A stretch of DNA of 64,000 nucleotides from assembly GCA_049512315.1 (NCBI GenBank), contig JBEKXF010000004.1, positions 89,144-153,143 of the forward strand. The letters run 5' to 3'. Positions 44,283 to 53,320 of this stretch are shown here, in pieces. Position 1 is the first letter of the stretch. Each line of letters opens with the position of its first letter. The DNA is from Candidatus Aminicenantales bacterium. GTDB lineage: Bacteria; Acidobacteriota; Aminicenantia; Aminicenantales; Saccharicenantaceae. The notes beneath the pieces are model-generated. The model had not been told where the DNA came from, did not search any database, and saw only the letters and a program-made list of their open reading frames with translations. Position numbers and translations under genes: made by a program.

Positions 44283-47213
44283 GTGGGATCCATGAGGAGA
44301 CAGAGAGGCCTGATTGGGTTTCTGTTCTTTATCTTGTGCTCTTTTTCTTGGGTGTTTCCTGAAGAATGCGTGGGCTTAGGAGTGCAAAATGCAGAAACAT
44401 CATTGGACGCCCTGATTGAAAAGGGAAAGAGCCTCTATTCGGCAGGCGAGTTCGAAAACGCTGCTGCTCTATTTAAGAAAGCTCTCGGGCTTTCCAGAGA
44501 AATAGGAACACCCCAAAAAGAGGCTCTGTGCCTTTCGCAATTGGGGATAGCGTCTTGGGACATGGGCCAGATCTCGGAGTCCGCGAAGCTCTTCAAGGAT
44601 GCCTATCTTCTCGCCCGGCAACACGGAGATCTCTCGGTCGCGGAAGCTAATCGGAAATTCCTTGAAATTACTAGGCTCTACAACCTGGGAAAGGAATATC
44701 GATTAAAAAGCCTGAACAAGCAGTCTCTCGATTGTTTTAAACGGGCCATCGCCGTCGGACGCACAACAGGAATCGACAACTTTGAGCTCAAGTGTCTCCG
44801 TCAGAAGAGCCTGACGTACTGGCAGATCGACGATGTCGAGATGTTTTTCGAATGCAATAAGCAGGGGGTGGATCTATCTAGAAAGACCAACCATAGGAAG
44901 GAACTGGGGAAATTTTTAAACTACATAGGTGCCTATTATGAAAAGACGAGTGATTATTCTTATGCCCTGAAATATTTCGAAGAAGCACAAATTGAATCGA
45001 AGAAAGCAAATGATTTATTAATGGAAGCAGAATGCTTGTCAAATATCGGAGGTGTTTACCTTGATTTAGATATTCTAGATTACGCCGAATCTTATTACGA
45101 AAGAGCGCTTGTTATCGACAGAACTTTAGGCAACAAAGTTAATGTTGCTATGGATCTCAATAATATTGGAATTGTAGTGCTCAATAACGCTCATTTAATT
45201 GATGACCACTCCGGGCTAGATAACTCTCTCCAATGCTTCCAGGAATGCCTCCAATTATTAAATGAACAAGAGAATAGCACATTAGCGATTCAGGTAATGA
45301 ATAATATTGGATATATATCCTATATAAAAGGCAGATATTCGGATGCGGCCAATGCGTTTGAGAATTGCCTTTCTAAAGCAGAGAGGATTGGTTATGAAGA
45401 AGGGATCAGCGTTGCCCACCTAAATTTGGGCAATATGGGCCTAAAGAGCGGGAATTATCAACTGGCTGAAGCTCACTTTGTTAATGCTATTAACACGGCC
45501 ATTGAGACTAATTCGAAAGAAACGTTATGGGAAGCCTATTTTGGACTAGGCCAATGTCGTGAAGCTAGTAATGATTTGCGATTCGCTCTAGAGAATTATA
45601 AAAAATCCATTGGGATAATTGAAAAAATCAGGGACCACATCACCCTGGACATATTCAAAATAGGCTTTGCCAGAAATAAGTTCACTGTTTACGAGCATGC
45701 TATAGATATCCTCCATTCTTTTTATATGTCTTCCCCTTCTGAAGCTCTTCTTGAAGAAATGTTTTCTATGATTGAAAAGGCCAAAGCTCGAGCTTTTCTT
45801 GAAGGCCTTGCCGAAGGTCGGATCGATCTTAGCAGGGTATTGAACCTAGCGAAGAAAAAGCGAGAAAGAGAAGTATCGAAAGAAATTTCGGAAGTTGTTA
45901 AGCAACTGACGGGATTCCAATTGAGAAAGGCAGGGAAGGAAAATCTCCTGCGGGAGTTGGATAGAAAAGAAGAAGAATTTCTGAGGGTCATCTCAGATAT
46001 CAAAACGGAATATAGGAAAGCCGGGATTGTTGCGTCTCCCGAAATCTGTGCAATTTCTGAAGTGAAAAACCGATTGCTAGAGAGGCACAGGGCTTTTCTT
46101 GAATACTTTGTAGGAGAGAAAAAATCTTACCTAATTTTCTTTACGAGGAATCGTTCGGGATTATATGAATTGCCCGGACGATCAAGCCTGGAGAATTCTC
46201 TTAAGGGTTTTTTGAAAACACTTGCCGTACCTTCTCGTGGTCCCTTCATCGGCATGCGAGCAGGGGAGCGTATTGCGCGGGAGCTAGTTTTCCCACTACA
46301 AGAAAAGATCTACAATGAGATTAATTCTTTGATTATCATTCCGGACGGAGTGCTCAATTACCTCCCCTTTGAGACATTAAGAGTGGAGACCAACGGAGGC
46401 CGTTGCTTCCTTATTGAGAAATATGGTGTTTCCTATGGCCAATCAGCCTCGTCACTCCTGTTTTTAAAACAAACTCTCCAGATTACGAAGAGGAATAAAG
46501 ATCTCCTCGCTGTTGGATCACCCAAGTACGGCAAAGCGCAGAAAACGGGCATTAGCCAAAAAATATCGCGGGCAGAAGTTTGGACGGAGATTTATCGGGG
46601 CGATGGCTTTTCCTTCGAATCTTTGCCGTTCAGCAAGAATGAAATCCTGGACATCGTGAGTAATTTTCCAGAGAGGAAAGTTGACGTCTTTTTGGAACGC
46701 GAGGCAAACGAATCTGTTATAAAGAAGTTACCTTTGAGCGAATACCAAATCATACACTTTGCCTGCCATGGGTTTCTTGATGAAAAATCGCCTTTTCGGT
46801 CGGCCTTGGTCCTGTCTCTCGACGAAGGCCAGGGAGAAGATGGATTTTTACAGGTTAGAGAGATCAACAATCTCAGGATTAATGCTGACCTTGTCGTGCT
46901 TTCTGCTTGCCAGACCGGGAATGGCTCTCTAGAGAAGGGAGAGGGTTTGTTGGGTTTAAGCAGAACATTTTTTTATGCTGGAGCTCGTGCTGTTCTTTCA
47001 GCCCTTTGGCCCGTCAATGATCAGTCGACAGCGGCTCTAATGGGCGATTTTTATAGGTTCTTGGTCCAAGGACAAGGTAAGGATGAGGCTCTCCGCCTTG
47101 CCAAAATGAAAATGCTAAAATCCACACGCAGGCATCCATTTTATTGGGCAGGGTTTGTACTTCACGGAGACGCCGCTTCAGTTTCTTTTGATAATTCTAA
47201 GCTAGCGCACTGA
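44283..47213 (+). CDS. Exported TPR-CHAT caspase-like protease 1
   Basis: N-terminal hydrophobic segment; TPRs; EKAKARAFLE, IIPDGVLNYLPFETL, IIHFACHG (His), VLSACQTG (Cys), HPFYWAGFVL. Confidence 0.93.
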   Translation: MGSMRRQRGLIGFLFFILCSFSWVFPEECVGLGVQNAETSLDALIEKGKSLYSAGEFENAAALFKKALGLSREIGTPQKEALCLSQLGIASWDMGQISESAKLFKDAYLLARQHGDLSVAEANRKFLEITRLYNLGKEYRLKSLNKQSLDCFKRAIAVGRTTGIDNFELKCLRQKSLTYWQIDDVEMFFECNKQGVDLSRKTNHRKELGKFLNYIGAYYEKTSDYSYALKYFEEAQIESKKANDLLMEAECLSNIGGVYLDLDILDYAESYYERALVIDRTLGNKVNVAMDLNNIGIVVLNNAHLIDDHSGLDNSLQCFQECLQLLNEQENSTLAIQVMNNIGYISYIKGRYSDAANAFENCLSKAERIGYEEGISVAHLNLGNMGLKSGNYQLAEAHFVNAINTAIETNSKETLWEAYFGLGQCREASNDLRFALENYKKSIGIIEKIRDHITLDIFKIGFARNKFTVYEHAIDILHSFYMSSPSEALLEEMFSMIEKAKARAFLEGLAEGRIDLSRVLNLAKKKREREVSKEISEVVKQLTGFQLRKAGKENLLRELDRKEEEFLRVISDIKTEYRKAGIVASPEICAISEVKNRLLERHRAFLEYFVGEKKSYLIFFTRNRSGLYELPGRSSLENSLKGFLKTLAVPSRGPFIGMRAGERIARELVFPLQEKIYNEINSLIIIPDGVLNYLPFETLRVETNGGRCFLIEKYGVSYGQSASSLLFLKQTLQITKRNKDLLAVGSPKYGKAQKTGISQKISRAEVWTEIYRGDGFSFESLPFSKNEILDIVSNFPERKVDVFLEREANESVIKKLPLSEYQIIHFACHGFLDEKSPFRSALVLSLDEGQGEDGFLQVREINNLRINADLVVLSACQTGNGSLEKGEGLLGLSRTFFYAGARAVLSALWPVNDQSTAALMGDFYRFLVQGQGKDEALRLAKMKMLKSTRRHPFYWAGFVLHGDAASVSFDNSKLAH

Positions 47214-47223
47214 AGTGAGGATC

Positions 47224-47922
47224 TTATTGAAGGATTGTGAACTTCCATAGATTGGACTCGGCTAATTTGTCATTATGGGCGTAAGCGGTTATCATCCAGT
47301 AATATGGCATATTTAATTGGAGCTGACCTGTGATTTCGTGGGGCAAAATAAAGGATGTTGCCGAGGTTGCCGTGCTCTTCCAGATTGGCAAAAGAGATTC
47401 ATCATAGAGTTCAAGGATATAGCTCTCAGCCCCCGCAATTTCCTGCCACTTGAATATCAATGGCAGGGTGACGCGCTGGTTTGGTTTTGGCTGCATAAGC
47501 CCCACAAATGAACGTATTGCCCGTGTCTGATCTTCATGTCCCAGCTTCTGAACGATTGTCGCTAGAGATGCGATAACCAGAATAATGCCGATAAAAGCAG
47601 AAGAGAATCTCCATAAGAGTCGCACTCGTTGGCTTGATCTACGTAAAGAAGGAGGCGAGGATTCCGCTGACTGCGCCTCCCGGACCTCTTGAATCATCTT
47701 TTTCTGGTATCTTTGAAGCTCAAGAAGAAACTCAAACTCTCTAGCGCAAGATGAACAGTTCGTCACGTGATCGATAATCTTCATTTTTTTGGGGATTCGG
47801 CTCGAAGATTCGAAAAAAAACACGAGCTTTTCCAGGGATGGACATCCCAACCTATTGTCTGGGTCCTTATCCGCGATATAGGATCGATACAAACGTTTTA
47901 GCTCTTCATCGTTGAGATTCAT
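47224..47922 (-). CDS. ZAS-type anti-sigma factor with TM and extracytoplasmic Ig/Fn3-like domain
   Basis: GCPS...HVTNCSSC (HxxxCxxC), TM FSSAFIGIILVIASLATIV, beta-rich C-terminus (FKW, YILELY, YYWMI); overlaps sigma stop. Confidence 0.82.
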   Translation of the reverse strand: MNLNDEELKRLYRSYIADKDPDNRLGCPSLEKLVFFFESSSRIPKKMKIIDHVTNCSSCAREFEFLLELQRYQKKMIQEVREAQSAESSPPSLRRSSQRVRLLWRFSSAFIGIILVIASLATIVQKLGHEDQTRAIRSFVGLMQPKPNQRVTLPLIFKWQEIAGAESYILELYDESLLPIWKSTATSATSFILPHEITGQLQLNMPYYWMITAYAHNDKLAESNLWKFTILQ

Positions 47923-48454
47923 AATGAATATCCATATTCTTGAGGTTTTTTTTCAGGTCGGACAAGCCCCGATAGAGGAGATTCCTGGTCTTATCAGTGC
48001 TCCAATTGAGATAGCTAGAGATTTCCGGAATGCTGAGATTGAGGAGGTACAATTTTACGACCTGGCGCCGTGATTCGATGAGCTTGTCCACTGCCTTGCC
48101 GACAGTCTCCTCCAGACTTCTGAACCGAGCCATCTCGATACTATGAACTACCTCATTTTCAGCCACCTGCCGTTCGTGGCTGAAGATCCCCTCCTCTCTT
48201 CGGATTTTTCTGAGTTGGTCGATAACTGAGGAATTCACGATTTTCTTTATATAGGACGGATAATTTGTGATGTTTTTCTCACTGTCAAGGAGTTTCCAGA
48301 TCTTTATCCTGACATCTTGGGAAACATCGTCAGGATCCAGCCCATATTTATAGAGGTTGTACTTGTGGATGTGAATCCGGATGAAATTGGCAAACCGGCC
48401 CAAAAGGTCTTCAAACTCCCGTTCCTTGATTCGCTCTGAATCCATCATCCACAT
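47906..48454 (-). CDS. ECF RNA polymerase sigma factor
   Basis: DDVSQDVRIKIW region 2, NSSVIDQLRK, region 4 LSIPEISSYLNWSTDKTRNLLYRG; start among Met at 48454/48448/48445. Confidence 0.9.
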   Translation of the reverse strand: MWMMDSERIKEREFEDLLGRFANFIRIHIHKYNLYKYGLDPDDVSQDVRIKIWKLLDSEKNITNYPSYIKKIVNSSVIDQLRKIRREEGIFSHERQVAENEVVHSIEMARFRSLEETVGKAVDKLIESRRQVVKLYLLNLSIPEISSYLNWSTDKTRNLLYRGLSDLKKNLKNMDIHYESQR

Positions 48455-48632
48455 CCAGAAAACAAGAAAGACTTTAATTTCGCATCGTACTATTATAGAT
48501 GTCAAGAGATCATTCTTTTTCTCACTTTATGTCCATTTCATGAGAAATATTACCGATTGTATCGTTTTCTTCTAGAGGTGCGGAGGATCGACCCGCTTTG
48601 TCAACAATCCGTGTTCATCCCAGGCTATAATG

Positions 48633-49553
48633 ATGGGCATAACCATCATCGGGTCAAGTTCAGTAATGGTGTCCGTGTCCGGGGCTTTATGCAAGGCCGC
48701 GAGTTTTGACAAAAACGTACTCTTACTTGGTGAGACTGGAACTGGGAAAGACCTCGCCGCTCGCAAAATTCATGAGCTTAGCCCTTGCCGGGCGTTTCCC
48801 TTTATCCCTATAAACTGCTCCAATCTATCGGACGGACTCTTCGAATCAGAACTTTTCGGGCATGCCAAAGGTGCGTTCACGGGAGCTGTTCGTGAAAAGT
48901 CCGGACTGCTGGATGTGGCCGAGAACGGCACTGTCTTTCTGGATGAAATCGGGGAGCTGCCCCTCCATCTCCAAGCCAAAATTCTAAGGTTATTGGATAA
49001 AAAGGAATCGAGAAGAATTGGAGCTACCCAAACAAGAACCCTTAGGGTTCGTTTCATTTTCGCCACTAACAGAAATCTTCATGCGAGCGTTCTTGAAGGC
49101 ACCTTCAGGAAAGACCTCTACTATAGGATCAACGTCGTAAGGATCCAGATTCCTGCCTTGCGGGAGCGGAAAGAAGATATCCCCTCCTTGGTAAATCATT
49201 TTATCGAACAGGAGAATCTGCGGAGCGACAGCCATAAAGCATTAACACAAGAAGCTCTTGAGAAACTCTCGGCTTACGATTTTCCAGGAAACGTAAGGGA
49301 ATTGGAAAATGTCATAGAAAGGTCTTTCGTTTTTTCCGAAGGCGATTTGGTTACGGCAAGAGATATTCGTTTAGATCCCGAGCCCATTATGGGCACGCCA
49401 GAGGTGATCCAGGCGCACATAAAATCGACTTTGGAACAATGCCGCTGGAACAAAACGAAAACGGCCCGGAGACTCGGGAAGAGTCGGAGGCAACTATACC
49501 GGATTCTCGAAAAATATGAACTGACTGACAATTTCAGAAAAGTGGTTCTTTGA
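48633..49553 (+). CDS. Sigma54 enhancer-binding protein without N-terminal sensor domain
   Basis: IIGSS..M, GETGTGKD, ESELFGHAKGAFTGA, FLDEIG, FPGNVRELEN, Fis-type HTH NKTKTARRLG. Confidence 0.92.
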   Translation: MGITIIGSSSVMVSVSGALCKAASFDKNVLLLGETGTGKDLAARKIHELSPCRAFPFIPINCSNLSDGLFESELFGHAKGAFTGAVREKSGLLDVAENGTVFLDEIGELPLHLQAKILRLLDKKESRRIGATQTRTLRVRFIFATNRNLHASVLEGTFRKDLYYRINVVRIQIPALRERKEDIPSLVNHFIEQENLRSDSHKALTQEALEKLSAYDFPGNVRELENVIERSFVFSEGDLVTARDIRLDPEPIMGTPEVIQAHIKSTLEQCRWNKTKTARRLGKSRRQLYRILEKYELTDNFRKVVL

Positions 49554-49632: not shown

Positions 49633-52611
49633 TCAGGATTTCCTCCGCCGATATGTCACGATGGCCAGGACGGCAATCATGCTAATCCCGAGAACGCCAG
49701 CCATTATCATAATGAGATTGAGGCCTCCGGAATATATTCGAGAGTCCGTCTTTCCGTTGATAACGAATCCTGCCCAGTAATAAGGATGGGACAGTGTCCT
49801 AGAACGGATCATGTCAAGTTTGGCATTCCGTAACGCTCCCATCAATGATTCACCACCCCGGATGTGTCGATAAAACCCTTCCATGAGGAGTGAGGTGGCT
49901 TGGTCATTCACGGCCCAAAGACTCATGAGGACAGATGATGAGCCGGCATAGAAAAAAGCCCGACTCAGCCCTTCGATTCCTTCACCCCTGACAAATTGGC
50001 CCAGTCCGGTCTGGCACGCGGACAACGTTACGAGTTCGGCGTTCATCTTGAGGTTATAAATATCTCTTGCTTGGAGAAGCCCTTCCCCGGCTTGGTTTTT
50101 ATTGAACGAGAGGAGGATGGCCGATCGGGCCGGCTTCTTGTCATCGATCACACTATGAGCCGCGAAATGGATGATCCTGTAGTCCGTTAATGGATTGGAT
50201 TTCAGCCAACGCTCTGTCGCATCTTGTTTTTCCAGCACCGTGACTCTGTTGGGTGGGAAAAGCTGAGAGATCCTCTCGATCTCCGACGCGGAATACTTGA
50301 GCGGGGAGAGTGAGACGCCAAAAGAAGAGCCGGAACCATAAAGAATATCAAGGTCGGGGACGACGGCGGTTCCCCCCTTGCCTATGTTGTACTCGGTATC
50401 TCCTATGGCCAGAAGGTCTTTGTGCGGCCTGGAACCCTTCTGGTGTCTTCGACTTAGAAATCTGAGCGATGAGAGGGAGGGAACATAGCCGATCTGGAAT
50501 TCCCGGATTAACCAGGAGCGGGGTTCATGATTCGTGCGCAGAGTCTCGAACGGAAGGAGATTCAGGATGTCATCTGGAACAAAAACAATCCTCTTTAACC
50601 CCGGCTCGATCCCCGGGGATACGAGCTCTTGATAGAGTTCCTGGCCGAGGTGGAAATCCCTATTTTGACGGTCAGAGATGGCCTTACGGTATTCGATAAC
50701 CTGCTGCTGGATAACCTTCCTTGAGGGGAGCTTAAAGATTCTTAGCCCCTTATGAAAAACCACAAAAGCGTAGGACGCCTCTTTTCCGAGCGAATAGGCG
50801 AAGTAGGCTTCGTCGGGGGCTAGCAGTTCTTTCCGGACTTCCTCGTACGTGATGACCTTCGGATACTTCAGGTCGGCATACGCGGGGCTCGACATCCGAA
50901 TTTCCCGCCTCAAGGTTTCGAGTTGGTCTTCCAAGGACTTGATCTGGCCCGAAATCGTTTCCTTGCCCTCGGGGGAATCATCCGCGGACAAAAGCTTGCT
51001 GTAGGCTTTTGAGATGTTTCTCATAGCTTCTTTTTCGCGGTTTGCCAGGATAGGATTGATCCCTTGTGAAACGTCGACCTCAGCAACCTCAAGGCTGTCA
51101 AGGAAAGCCCGGGCCTTGCCTCTTTCCAGGTAATTAAACGCCTCCTTATCGTAACCCTTGTTGGGATCCATTTTCTGAAGCGTGACCAAAAGGTCAATGA
51201 GGTTCTGGTAAACCTCAATTCGTTTATCTGTGCCGAAATAACTCGCTTTGAGATCTTCGATGGTTATCGAAGATCTGATATGTTCGATTATGGAAATTGA
51301 GGTCTTATAATATTCTAATGCAGCCTGGTATTTTTTTTGTATCGAAAAAGTATTTGCGCTTTCATAGAATACCTCCCAGAGTAATTGTCCGTCTCGGCTC
51401 TTATTTGCCACATTAATTGCCAACTTGAAATATTCTAACGATTCATCGAATTTGCCAATTTTAGAATTGATGATGCCCAGATTATTTAGTATCCTGCCTA
51501 TTTTTTCAGTGTCCCGCTCATTTTGTGCGAGGTTATATGCTCTCCTAAAATAGCCAAGTGCATCGAAATATCGTTCTTTGTCAAAAAGCAATGAGCCAAT
51601 GTTATTAAAGACAGCTATAGTTAGGCGTGAATCTCCAAATTCATTTATTAATGCCAAACTTGATTTGAAATCTGTCAGGGCATTGCTAAAATCTTCTTGA
51701 CTGTTCGAAATCAACCCCCTTTTTCTTAAGATAATCCCCCTGTTGATATAATCAATTGATATTTGTCTGGCGTCCCTCAATTTTTCATCTATGGCAAGCG
51801 AACGAGTGACACAATCTAACGCTTTGTCGTAGTCTCCAAGTTCTTGGTAGATCACCCCTAAATTACTTAGTGAGTCAGTTTCTCCCTGTAGGTTATTTAT
51901 TCCTCTTGTTATCTGGTCGGCTTGCTCGCAAGATCGAAGGGCCTTGGAATAATTCTCTAGTTTTATAAAATATATTCCAATATTATTTAGGCAATTGCTG
52001 GCTTCTCTCATATTGTTTGTTTGTTGTGCTAAGGAAAGCGCTTCTTTATTCAGAGAATAGAATTTCGAATAATCGCCAGTATCCCAGAAGATAAGACTAA
52101 GTTGTCTCTCACACTTGATAACATGATCCGGACTATTAATGCTCTTAGCAATTTCGATTGCATTAACAAAGCATTTAGCGCCTTTTTCATAATTTGACTC
52201 AGATCTGTGCTGTTTTCCTTCCTGATAAAGGTTGTGAATTTCTATCGAACTTAAGATAAAAACGTTGGTGACTTTCTCTTCCAGCCTCTTGGCGAGAGGC
52301 AAGGCTTTATCAAAAAAGAGTTTGGAGCTATTTAAGTCACCGACATTCCAATAAAGAATCCCTAATTCCCTATAACAACTCAATTCAGCTCCGATATCAG
52401 AAGTCTTCTTTATATTCGATAGTGCATTGATATTAGTCTCGATCGCTTTTTGATAATTGCCCTTAATTCTATATCCTAACGCTTCTTTCATCTCTGCATA
52501 CGGGGACGATCTTTCTTGGTTATTTACATTCCGCCCCGGGTTGGCAAAAAAAACCGTCGCATTAAAAAAAATAAAGACGGCCACCCAAATCTTCAGATAA
52601 ATCGCTCTCAA
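49633..52611 (-). CDS. Exported TPR-CHAT caspase-like protease 2 with C-terminal TM anchor
   Basis: TTG start, signal peptide; TPRs; ERGKARAFLD, FVPDDILNLLPFETL, IIHFAAHS, TLSACQTG, HPYYWAGFV; TM + RRRKS. Confidence 0.93.
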   Translation of the reverse strand: MRAIYLKIWVAVFIFFNATVFFANPGRNVNNQERSSPYAEMKEALGYRIKGNYQKAIETNINALSNIKKTSDIGAELSCYRELGILYWNVGDLNSSKLFFDKALPLAKRLEEKVTNVFILSSIEIHNLYQEGKQHRSESNYEKGAKCFVNAIEIAKSINSPDHVIKCERQLSLIFWDTGDYSKFYSLNKEALSLAQQTNNMREASNCLNNIGIYFIKLENYSKALRSCEQADQITRGINNLQGETDSLSNLGVIYQELGDYDKALDCVTRSLAIDEKLRDARQISIDYINRGIILRKRGLISNSQEDFSNALTDFKSSLALINEFGDSRLTIAVFNNIGSLLFDKERYFDALGYFRRAYNLAQNERDTEKIGRILNNLGIINSKIGKFDESLEYFKLAINVANKSRDGQLLWEVFYESANTFSIQKKYQAALEYYKTSISIIEHIRSSITIEDLKASYFGTDKRIEVYQNLIDLLVTLQKMDPNKGYDKEAFNYLERGKARAFLDSLEVAEVDVSQGINPILANREKEAMRNISKAYSKLLSADDSPEGKETISGQIKSLEDQLETLRREIRMSSPAYADLKYPKVITYEEVRKELLAPDEAYFAYSLGKEASYAFVVFHKGLRIFKLPSRKVIQQQVIEYRKAISDRQNRDFHLGQELYQELVSPGIEPGLKRIVFVPDDILNLLPFETLRTNHEPRSWLIREFQIGYVPSLSSLRFLSRRHQKGSRPHKDLLAIGDTEYNIGKGGTAVVPDLDILYGSGSSFGVSLSPLKYSASEIERISQLFPPNRVTVLEKQDATERWLKSNPLTDYRIIHFAAHSVIDDKKPARSAILLSFNKNQAGEGLLQARDIYNLKMNAELVTLSACQTGLGQFVRGEGIEGLSRAFFYAGSSSVLMSLWAVNDQATSLLMEGFYRHIRGGESLMGALRNAKLDMIRSRTLSHPYYWAGFVINGKTDSRIYSGGLNLIMIMAGVLGISMIAVLAIVTYRRRKS

Positions 52612-52692
52612 AATGAAGCCCCAAGAATAGCGGTACTCTACTAATAGATGGGAAGATCGGATTTTTTCTATGCTCTTTAAGGAGGAGAAAGG

Positions 52693-52720
52693 GGGTGATT
52701 TTATATTATAAAAATCACCC
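52693..52720. terminator. Inverted repeat between peptide gene and CHAT 2 (attenuator/terminator or operator)
   Basis: GGGTGATTTT-N8-AAAATCACCC, perfect 10-bp stem. Confidence 0.55.
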
Positions 52721-52775
52721 TTCTGGAGGACGGCGAGGAAGGAAATTTGCGAGAGGACTCTTTTCTAAATCTAGC

Positions 52776-53060
52776 CTAGTCTTTTCCACTAGGTCTTAGA
52801 ATCACTATATCAGCTGTTATTTTGACGACCTTATTTAAGCTATTCGTCCCCGGCTGAACAGGGGTCGGCTGATCGACTTTGATCACGTTCCGGAGCCCGG
52901 GGAAGAGGCTGACCAGGAGCTGGGCGGGGTATTTGAGGAGCAGGCCGAAGCTGAGCCTCGTCGTTTTCTGCGGGTCGGCAGAGAGGCCGGATGCCGAGAG
53001 TCCCAGGAAAGCGAAACAGACGAGAAGGACGACGGCTTTTTGAAGGTTTCTTTTCCGCAT
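52776..53060 (-). CDS. Small secreted peptide precursor (94 aa)
   Basis: AAGGAGG SD; MRKRNLQKAVVLLVCFAFLGLSASGLSA signal; ends ...KVVKITADIVILRPSGKD. Confidence 0.82.
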   Translation of the reverse strand: MRKRNLQKAVVLLVCFAFLGLSASGLSADPQKTTRLSFGLLLKYPAQLLVSLFPGLRNVIKVDQPTPVQPGTNSLNKVVKITADIVILRPSGKD

Positions 53061-53171
53061 AGCGGCCTCCTTGACGGACAGCTCGCCTTGGGAAAATGAC
53101 CGAAGAAAGGACAAGACGGAACAGATGGCTAGGCAAATCCTCTCTTCAGGAAATCATCCAAGGCTGATTTA

Positions 53172-53200
53172 AAAATAAGTCAATAAAATCCAATTGTCAA
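53172..53200 (-). promoter_or_regulatory. sigma70-type promoter of peptide gene
   Basis: TTGACA-17-TATTTT on minus strand, about 105-nt leader. Confidence 0.6.
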
Positions 53201-53320
53201 GCCCCGGCGCCCCTAATACAGGGCCTCCGGCGGCCTCGAAAGAAGCCTGATAGAGAAAAATCTACAATACTTAGTATTCAGAGACCTAGAGAGCACGAGA
53301 TTTAGGGAGCCAAAAAGATT

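Follow-up and report, generated by a model that had tools for sequence, protein, structure and literature searches.

What does a short exported protein do when it is encoded next to a membrane-anchored protease of the CHAT type? The question is raised by a stretch of 64,000 nucleotides (nt) from a Candidatus Aminicenantales bacterium (contig JBEKXF010000004.1, positions 89,144 to 153,143), which we call the window. In it, a small gene of 94 codons lies on the minus strand at 53060..52776 and is followed on the same strand, after a spacer of 164 nt, by CHAT2 (52611..49633), a 992-amino acid (aa) gene that joins tetratricopeptide repeats (TPR) to a CHAT protease. A first-pass annotation had drawn attention to the small open reading frame (ORF), its Shine-Dalgarno (SD) sequence, its promoter and the adjoining CHAT2, and all of these features are present on the minus strand. 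Our comparative analysis leads us to favor, with some reservation, the view that the C-terminal tail of the small protein and the N-terminal TPR array of CHAT2 bind each other as a cognate pair.

The small ORF is a real gene. It runs from an ATG at 53060 to a TAG stop at 52778-52776, encodes MRKRNLQKAVVLLVCFAFLGLSASGLSADPQKTTRLSFGLLLKYPAQLLVSLFPGLRNVIKVDQPTPVQPGTNSLNKVVKITADIVILRPSGKD, and has the C-terminal end ITADIVILRPSGKD. A word-index search recovered homologues in 36 protein clusters, all of 89-119 aa and aligned end to end (the 119-aa homologue, P0022, is a gene-caller extension), and a profile search of 1.84 billion representatives gave 62 matches, nearly all of them full length and of 87-97 aa. 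The family totals about 90 full-length relatives of 87-97 aa. All named members belong to Candidatus Aminicenantes or Aminicenantales, and source annotations describe them as 'hypothetical protein'. The protein matched 0 families in Pfam and NCBIfam (E threshold of 0.01) and no defense-system model of PADLOC. A scan of genome contigs yielded two true loci only; L011 and L012 were signal-peptide look-alikes without a nearby CHAT gene. A longer form starting at a TTG at 53114 was rejected, since protein conservation starts at the ATG and the SD sequence fits that codon. Base composition is uneven: the window has 60-65% GC, with only 39-47% between 44.2 and 52.9 kb, and within the small ORF the first two thirds have 63% GC and the tail is AT-rich. 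The possibility that the gene is the remnant of a host gene truncated by an AT-rich island was rejected because all homologues are full length and carry the same tail motif. The presence of the AT-rich block at the same chromosomal site in all lineages also contradicts the reading of an inserted island.

The protein begins with a signal peptide, MRKRNLQKAVVLLVCFAFLGLSASGLSA (codons 1-28; 52977..53060, minus strand, as are all segments of the gene), which displays the n, h and c regions expected of a Sec signal of the signal peptidase I type, namely a basic n-region (here MRKRNLQK), a hydrophobic h-region of 10-15 residues (here AVVLLVCFAFLGL), and small residues at -1 and -3 of the c-region (here SASGLSA/D, the slash marking the putative cut). 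Cleavage is predicted from this pattern and from a family-wide site of the type PGLxSA/AEKK; the signal was judged by reading the sequence, together with the helix of an AlphaFold2 model. A bacterial lipoprotein was dismissed: there is no lipobox (L-[AS]-[GA]-C) at the end of the h-region, Cys15 sits midway in the hydrophobic stretch, directly after L-V, and the x-A-C arrangement occurs in a few distant family members only. The middle of the protein (codons 29-76; 52833..52976) consists of an amphipathic helical hairpin followed by a Pro/Gln/Ser linker and is weakly constrained. The C-terminal tail KVVKITADIVILRPSGKD (codons 77-94; 52779..52832), which is of the type that we call A, carries a family-wide motif and ends in Asp-COOH.

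The proportions of nonsynonymous and synonymous differences in cross-lineage pairs (pN and pS) vary along the codons. The hydrophobic core and cleavage region (codons 12-28) showed a pN of 0.04, a pS of 0.38 and a pN/pS ratio of 0.12; the ratio rose to about 0.7 in codons 29-76; and in codons 77-94, compared within one tail type, pN was 0.19, pS was 0.77 (saturated) and the ratio fell to 0.24. Because of this profile, the small protein is best described as an export signal under strong constraint, followed by a spacer that varies almost freely and by a tail under purifying selection. The AlphaFold2 model (predicted local distance difference test score, pLDDT, of 60) assigns residues 3-25 to a helix, residues 38-57 to short helices and residues 58-94 to coil. 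Model and pN/pS profile together bear out the proposed layout of signal peptide, amphipathic helical middle, Pro-Gln linker and C-terminal core.

The first-pass annotation had compared this leader-linker-core layout with the precursors of pheromones and of ribosomally synthesized and post-translationally modified peptides (RiPPs). The anatomy holds, and the RiPP comparison does not survive. If the protein were a RiPP precursor, its N-terminus would be a leader for modifying enzymes and its tail a modified core, a notion that the layout itself invites and to which weak matches of the TPR half of CHAT2 to TPR proteins of two RiPP-type systems, HaaT and FxSxx-COOH, could be added. However, these NCBIfam matches lie far below cut-off (81 vs 1125 and 29 vs 300) and reflect generic TPR similarity, the N-terminus has the n-h-c pattern of a Sec signal, not that of a RiPP leader, and the Pfam content of the neighborhoods includes no radical-SAM, YcaO, lanthionine or other maturase genes. 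We consider a RiPP precursor hardly credible.

When 92 members of the family are aligned without gaps from the C-terminus, a right-anchored motif emerges, [IV][KR]xT[GA]x[IL]xxx[RK][PLV][SG]x[GK]D-COOH, or by position [IV]-16 [KR]-15 [PTI]-14 T-13 [GA]-12 [DTGE]-11 [IL]-10 x x x [RK]-6 [PLV]-5 [SG]-4 x [GK]-2 D-1. The terminal Asp is present in 84 of the 92, there is no length variation relative to the C-terminus, and the tail of the window (V79-K-I-T-A-D-I-V-I-L-R-P-S-G-K-D94) matches the motif throughout. A conserved terminal R-P-x-x-x-D had been put forward as a pattern worth looking for; what the family holds, [RK]-[PL]-[SG]-x-[GK]-D, is essentially the same. Because the register of the motif is fixed to the free C-terminus, the alignment suggests that this C-terminus may itself be read by a partner.

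A similar ending occurs elsewhere in the neighborhood. In one lineage (L007, L017, L023), the anti-sigma factor encoded in the same gene module terminates in ...FIVRPKKD-COOH, which recalls the ILRPSGKD-COOH of type A tails; the anti-sigma factor of the window (47224-47922, minus strand) ends in ...KFTILQ and is unlike them. The resemblance hints that the CHAT proteases of the module could read C-terminal R-P-x-x-K-D tails more generally.

The candidate partner, CHAT2, is itself composed of two halves. Residues 1 to ~440 (51292..52611, minus strand; 38% GC) hold a signal peptide and a TPR array (Pfam TPR_12 and TPR_1) and constitute the allele-specific half; the start codon, a TTG at 52611, is uncertain. 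Residues ~441-992 (49633..51291, minus strand) are the constant half and comprise a linker, a caspase-fold CHAT protease (Pfam CHAT PF12770, E = 2e-69), a C-terminal transmembrane helix and RRRKS. Of the 12 loci that extend into the catalytic region, none departs from the catalytic His (HFAxHS) or Cys (LSACQTG), which by sequence identifies a CHAT protease with its catalytic pair. The N-terminal hydrophobic signal and the C-terminal transmembrane helix with its basic tail form a topology kept in all loci. The TPR half shows sequence resemblance to TPR proteins that bind peptides (LGN/Pins, Rap phosphatases and kinesin light chain), RapF is among its matches in the PDB, and a Pfam RNPP_C match stays below cut-off (20.2 vs 26.5 bits). 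The C-terminus itself (window 49633-49730, minus strand), YSGGLNLIMIMAGVLGISMIAVLAIVTYRRRKS, is a small-residue motif followed by the transmembrane helix and a basic cluster, a layout that resembles C-terminal sorting signals and that we treat as a plain anchor.

The association of the two genes is constant. Across about 20 distinct loci, distant members included, drawn from metagenome-assembled genomes at NCBI and from JGI, ENA and Logan assemblies, a CHAT2 orthologue is the next gene in every locus with enough downstream DNA, and the linkage to a CHAT gene that had been noted in the window holds in every informative locus. In most loci the whole module occupies the same site after ndk. The pair stays together even where module genes have moved (L001), are missing (L027) or are separated by a glycosyltransferase (L030, L035).

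The evidence that ties the tail to the TPR array comes from alleles. The tail exists in two forms, type A (TADIxILRPSGKD, that of the window) and type G (TGTIKSIRLSGGD), and the tail form predicts the form of the TPR array. Over CHAT2 residues 60-450, loci of one tail type share 49-86% identity and loci of different types 31-39%, whereas in residues 450-960 identity tracks lineage irrespective of tail type: the window (A) and L004 (G) are 85% identical there, and the type A loci L007, L017, L024 and L027 share 87-96% with the type G loci L023 and L025. In the small protein, L024 and L025 have matching signal peptides and are 94% identical over residues 29-74, and then their tails diverge; the window and L004 are likewise similar up to the tail and then differ in tail type. 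Sliding nucleotide identity in three pairs of the same lineage and different type was 85-99% in both flanks and dropped to 29-67% (mostly 30-55%) from about +200 to about +1770 nt after the ATG. This delimits a dimorphic, AT-rich specificity block of ~1.55 kb (51290..52860, minus strand) that comprises the tail, the spacer and CHAT2 residues 1-440 and coincides in the window with the AT-rich stretch at ~51150-52850. Its left edge falls in the linker of the small gene just before the tail, in the same few codons in the three independent pairs. A partial Mantel test with 13 loci related tail to TPR half given the C-terminal half of CHAT2 (r = 0.80, p = 1e-4); the relation of tail to C-terminal half given the TPR half was r = 0.25 (p = 0.09).

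The two forms are shared across lineages and are old. Both tail types occur in at least two lineages and coexist in one metagenome (L023, type G, and L024, type A, in Ga0209777). In the outgroup L030, the C-terminal half of CHAT2 is ~56% identical to that of all other loci and the TPR half is 39-45% identical to both types; because it is closer to both types than these are to each other, we regard the dimorphism as old. Block GC is 38-44% in the window and 12 other loci of both types, upstream GC is 58-66% in eleven main-clade loci and ~45% in two distant loci, and the constant half of CHAT2 has 47-56%. The GC trough is a stable compositional feature of a non-recombining block and not a mark of recent foreign origin. 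Overall, the locus harbors discrete alleles of a peptide end and of a receptor-like sensor half, set within conserved flanks and shared across lineages, as in pherotype blocks.

Two loci show unusual states of the block. L013 (10229-10354), which is 94% identical to the window, parts from it precisely between codons 76 and 77 of the small gene (window 52832) and continues with a stop, unrelated sequence containing a TTGACA..CATAAT promoter, a GTGCATAATATATGCAC palindrome and a new ATG, after which the contig ends; either an insertion or a third state of the left block edge could account for the break. In L018 (905-3085), a single 3-kb contig, CHAT2 lacks the whole TPR array and its signal peptide is joined directly to about residue 450, and in the accompanying small protein (P0022) the signal peptide, invariant elsewhere, is altered and the tail, AGAVRSVRLSGGD, is degenerate. 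By sequence this looks like joint decay of both partners.

Could the tail simply be a passenger? It lies only 164 nt from the TPR half, and if only the latter were diversifying, in response to an external ligand or to phage, a tail locked in the same non-recombining block would be carried along and the small protein could have an unrelated role in the periplasm. The TPR region of CHAT1, the second TPR-CHAT protease of the module, varies in mosaic fashion with no small partner gene, which fits this idea. However, within each type purifying selection maintains the tail even though synonymous changes have reached saturation, and its right-anchored motif is conserved family-wide. Furthermore, the left edge lies in the same linker codons in separate lineages, and L013 breaks at 76/77; without selection, an edge as old as the 31-39% identity implies should have shifted. 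The selection on the tail and the recurrence of this edge make linkage alone the poorer explanation, and the adjacency of the two genes has also survived rearrangement of the module. We judge hitch-hiking improbable. The first-pass annotation had offered the C-terminal end as ligand, substrate or inhibitor of the protease: its covariation with the TPR half, and not with the protease half, makes it the likely cognate partner of that TPR array, in whichever of these roles.

The partnership that we favor could work as follows. The exported protein would consist of ~66 mature residues, with a short helical segment, a poorly constrained flexible linker and the 18-residue tail, and CHAT2 would likewise be exported and then held on the inner membrane by its C-terminal anchor. 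The tail would lie as an extended peptide in the TPR superhelix, with its allele-specific residues (-14 to -7, -5 and -2) contacting the allele-specific TPR surface and its invariant features (basic residues at -15 and -6, Ser at -4 and the free Asp-COOH) contacting parts common to the alleles, perhaps a carboxylate clamp or the cleft of the CHAT active site. Binding may either restrain the protease, in the manner of securin and separase, or present the small protein for cleavage after the conserved Arg/Lys, and would in this way set the output of the module formed by the extracytoplasmic function (ECF) sigma factor, the anti-sigma factor and the sigma-54 activator. Binding, its geometry and its effects on proteolysis and signaling are all proposed here from comparative evidence. 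We envision a pair that acts mainly within the periplasm of one cell, because the protease would be anchored there and no route of peptide export is encoded nearby.

Several considerations weigh against this proposal. All loci are orthologous and belong to one phylum, and adjacency must partly reflect shared descent; taken by itself, the adjacency of genes at orthologous loci counts for little. Tail and TPR half are neighbors on the DNA, and their co-inheritance may in part be plain linkage to a diversifying TPR array. Confidence in the AlphaFold2 model of the small protein is low (pLDDT 60). Finally, for a partnership confined to one cell it is not obvious why two old alleles should persist together in several lineages.

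This persistence is the main argument for a role between cells. Under such an explanation the tail would be cut after the conserved Arg/Lys and its last 5-15 residues would diffuse as a peptide pheromone sensed by the CHAT2 TPR array of neighbors, the two tail/TPR alleles being mutually private dialects (pherotypes) under balancing selection. The variable block spans the peptide end and the sensor half of the receptor between conserved flanks, an architecture shared with PlcR-PapR and with the pherotype loci agr and comQXP. At least two lineages contain both alleles, one metagenome holds the two together, and the two forms have diverged from each other at least as much as a distant outgroup has from either. 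Basic residues are conserved at -15 and -6, and the small gene has its own strong promoter and SD sequence and is set off from the receptor gene by a hairpin-bearing spacer. Nevertheless, coexisting alleles can also be produced by recombination of whole blocks between co-adapted pairs, the release of the tail is only putative, and there are no linked genes for processing or export. An outer membrane is expected in Aminicenantes from their placement near Acidobacteria, and a peptide of 0.5-2 kDa would need a route of export and entry, none of which is encoded nearby. The probable two-membrane envelope and the predicted anchoring of the protease in the periplasm make a diffusible pheromone less likely, and we hold it possible, on the unlikely side. 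We are rather doubtful of the complete scenario, a peptide-dialect system of Aminicenantes in which a membrane-anchored extracytoplasmic protease of caspase fold reads the tail of a secreted protein with its TPR half, at least two ancient alleles are maintained by balancing selection, and proteolysis feeds a circuit of ECF sigma and sigma-54.

The genes that surround the pair are consistent in order in most loci: the small gene and CHAT2, the sigma-54 activator on the opposite strand, the ECF sigma factor and anti-sigma factor, and CHAT1 on the opposite strand. The sigma-54 activator (48630..49553, plus strand), a conserved part of the module by synteny, consists only of AAA+ and helix-turn-helix (HTH) domains and resembles PspF in having no receiver or sensor domain, and it should therefore need a regulator that acts in trans. 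No sigma-54 promoter was found in the AT-rich island. The ECF sigma factor (47906-48505, minus strand) also belongs to the conserved module. The anti-sigma factor combines an HxxxCxxC motif for zinc binding with a single transmembrane helix and ~95 aa of periplasmic domain. CHAT1 (44283..47213, plus strand), which is syntenic, has a signal peptide and no C-terminal anchor, and both CHAT1 and CHAT2 possess an intact His/Cys pair. Because of their signal peptides and membrane-anchor topologies, the small protein, both CHAT proteins and the sensing domain of the anti-sigma factor are all predicted to face the periplasm. In PADLOC, CHAT2 and CHAT1 gave generic TPR matches only, CHAT1 with an additional weak BovA match, and the sigma-54 activator matched AAA models of the RtcR/PspF type; these matches do not make the module a defense system.

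CHAT1 is also mosaic. The window and L004 are 74-82% identical at residues 51-200 of this protein and 22-38% identical at residues 250-400, where the window is closer to L020 (42-60%), a pattern that is independent of tail type. CHAT1 may contain a second recombining TPR segment.

The expression signals of the small gene (all on the minus strand) are well preserved. A sigma-70-type promoter of its own is defined by a -35 box TTGACA at 53195..53200, which as CTTGACA is invariant in 18 aligned loci and persists in 5 much more distant ones, and, 17 nt after it, by a -10 box TATTTT at 53172..53177 that is nearly invariant in the 18 loci. The SD sequence AAGGAGG (53066..53072), 5 nt before the ATG, is nearly invariant in the same set, and the sequence of its region, GGAGGCCG, shows no variation across 16 loci. 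A sigma-54 promoter for the gene was rejected: there is no nearby match within 3 mismatches, and matches in the window are fewer than in shuffled sequences. A resemblance in the leader (TGG..TTGA) is without the -12 GC, and distant loci do not preserve its spacing.

Transcription from this promoter would produce a 5' leader of ~105 nt (53061..53165; start of transcription inferred) with invariant blocks, one of which, the box GCCTTGGATGA, lies 8-12 nt after the -10 box and is kept family-wide even in the most distant loci. Across the window and L001-L035, the leader has changed less than the middle of the coding sequence of the small gene. Most main-clade loci have in it a 12-nt mini-frame, ATG-NNN-NNN-TGA. 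The pS of codons 1-11 is only 0.12 (0.38-0.86 elsewhere), and the start region is therefore constrained at the nucleotide level. The leader can form two possible stems, and in one possible hairpin the SD pairs with codons 5-7 so that the SD is buried and the AUG lies in the loop. However, compensatory changes were seen in 0 of 25 pairs, the folding z-score was only -1.67, and leader and spacer gave only chance-level matches in Rfam (E of at least 1.7). The claim of a proven RNA structure was therefore dropped; the stems are plausible but lack covariation.

Two other elements flank the gene. The spacer (52612..52775, minus strand), which lies within the variable block, holds a hairpin of 10 bp, GGGTGATTTT..AAAATCACCC at 52720-52693, ~55 nt after the stop of the small gene and without a clear U-tract. 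A similar GGGGTGA..TCACCC hairpin is found in the window and in 4 of 6 other type A loci (L007, L017, L024, L027) and in no type G locus; it may attenuate read-through into CHAT2. Farther upstream, ~200 nt before the ATG, another block of conservation (window 53262-53307, minus strand) leads from CCTAAATCTTGA through a GC-rich inverted repeat to AATACCAAAT..TGTGGATTTT. Most main-clade loci have this block, which might serve as an operator, as an upstream promoter or to terminate the gene before it.

CHAT proteases occur widely among bacteria, but substrates and triggers are known for few members of the type: separase, Craspase and, in part, DdvA. Sequence comparison by itself now points to a specific candidate partner for one such protease and delimits the 18 residues involved, and an unannotated protein family gains a defining motif. 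The two natural matched tail/TPR pairs supply both cognate and non-cognate combinations. An old and sharply bounded two-allele block in an uncultured phylum is a pattern usually tied to self/non-self or dialect recognition, and the pherotype explanation, if true, would represent a recognition system of a kind not described before.

How does the locus compare with known systems? In the literature, we found no paper that links CHAT proteases to pherotypes or to allelic peptide partners, and none that combines a TPR-CHAT protein with a periplasmic signal peptide. A close parallel in gene arrangement is offered by the RNPP systems of Firmicutes (Rap-Phr, PlcR-PapR and NprR-NprX), in which a small gene for a Sec-exported pro-peptide with a C-terminal active part also sits beside the gene of a TPR receptor; PlcR-PapR includes allelic pherotypes with co-varying peptide and TPR. 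However, RNPP receptors are cytoplasmic, their peptides are re-imported by Opp and their outputs are HTH or phosphatase functions, whereas the TPR protein studied here belongs to a different phylum and is predicted to be exported, membrane-anchored and fused to a caspase-fold protease. Membership in the RNPP group was rejected on the basis of the signal peptide and anchor of CHAT2, which place it outside the cytoplasm, its below-cut-off RNPP_C match and its CHAT output. The agr (AgrB/D/C) and comQXP systems share with our locus a sharply bounded hypervariable block that comprises the peptide end and the sensor half between conserved flanks, and their alleles are also shared across lineages. 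The proteins are unrelated, their receptors are histidine kinases and their peptides are modified, while release or modification of the tail is here only putative. A motif whose register is fixed to the free C-terminus is also typical of the ligands of Hop, which reads EEVD-COOH of Hsp70/Hsp90 and thus also an Asp end, and of PEX5, which reads SKL-COOH; both use TPR domains, and unlike CHAT2 they are eukaryotic, cytosolic and without a protease fusion.

Proteins that join TPR and CHAT offer close parallels in composition. Separase with securin and Craspase (Cas7-11-Csx29) with Csx30 likewise couple a TPR-CHAT protease to a small partner, which binds along the TPR into the CHAT active site and is an inhibitor in the case of securin and a substrate in that of Csx30, whose cleavage is tied to an ECF-type sigma factor (PMC11506125, PMC10028731). 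The small protein has no sequence similarity to securin or Csx30, and these systems differ from ours in being cytoplasmic, in the RNA guidance of Craspase, and in that no allelic blocks have been described for them. The one studied precedent for a periplasmic TPR-CHAT protein is DdvA of Myxococcus xanthus, which together with DdvS unites a periplasmic TPR-CHAT, a zinc-binding anti-sigma domain and an ECF sigma factor in one signaling unit (PMC11506125). DdvA carries the anti-sigma and TPR-CHAT parts in one polypeptide with an incomplete active site, and DdvA-like proteins were reported only from Myxococcota and one Comamonas (PMC11506125). In contrast, the Aminicenantes module distributes these parts over separate genes, has two CHAT proteins with intact His/Cys pairs, and adds the gene of a small partner.

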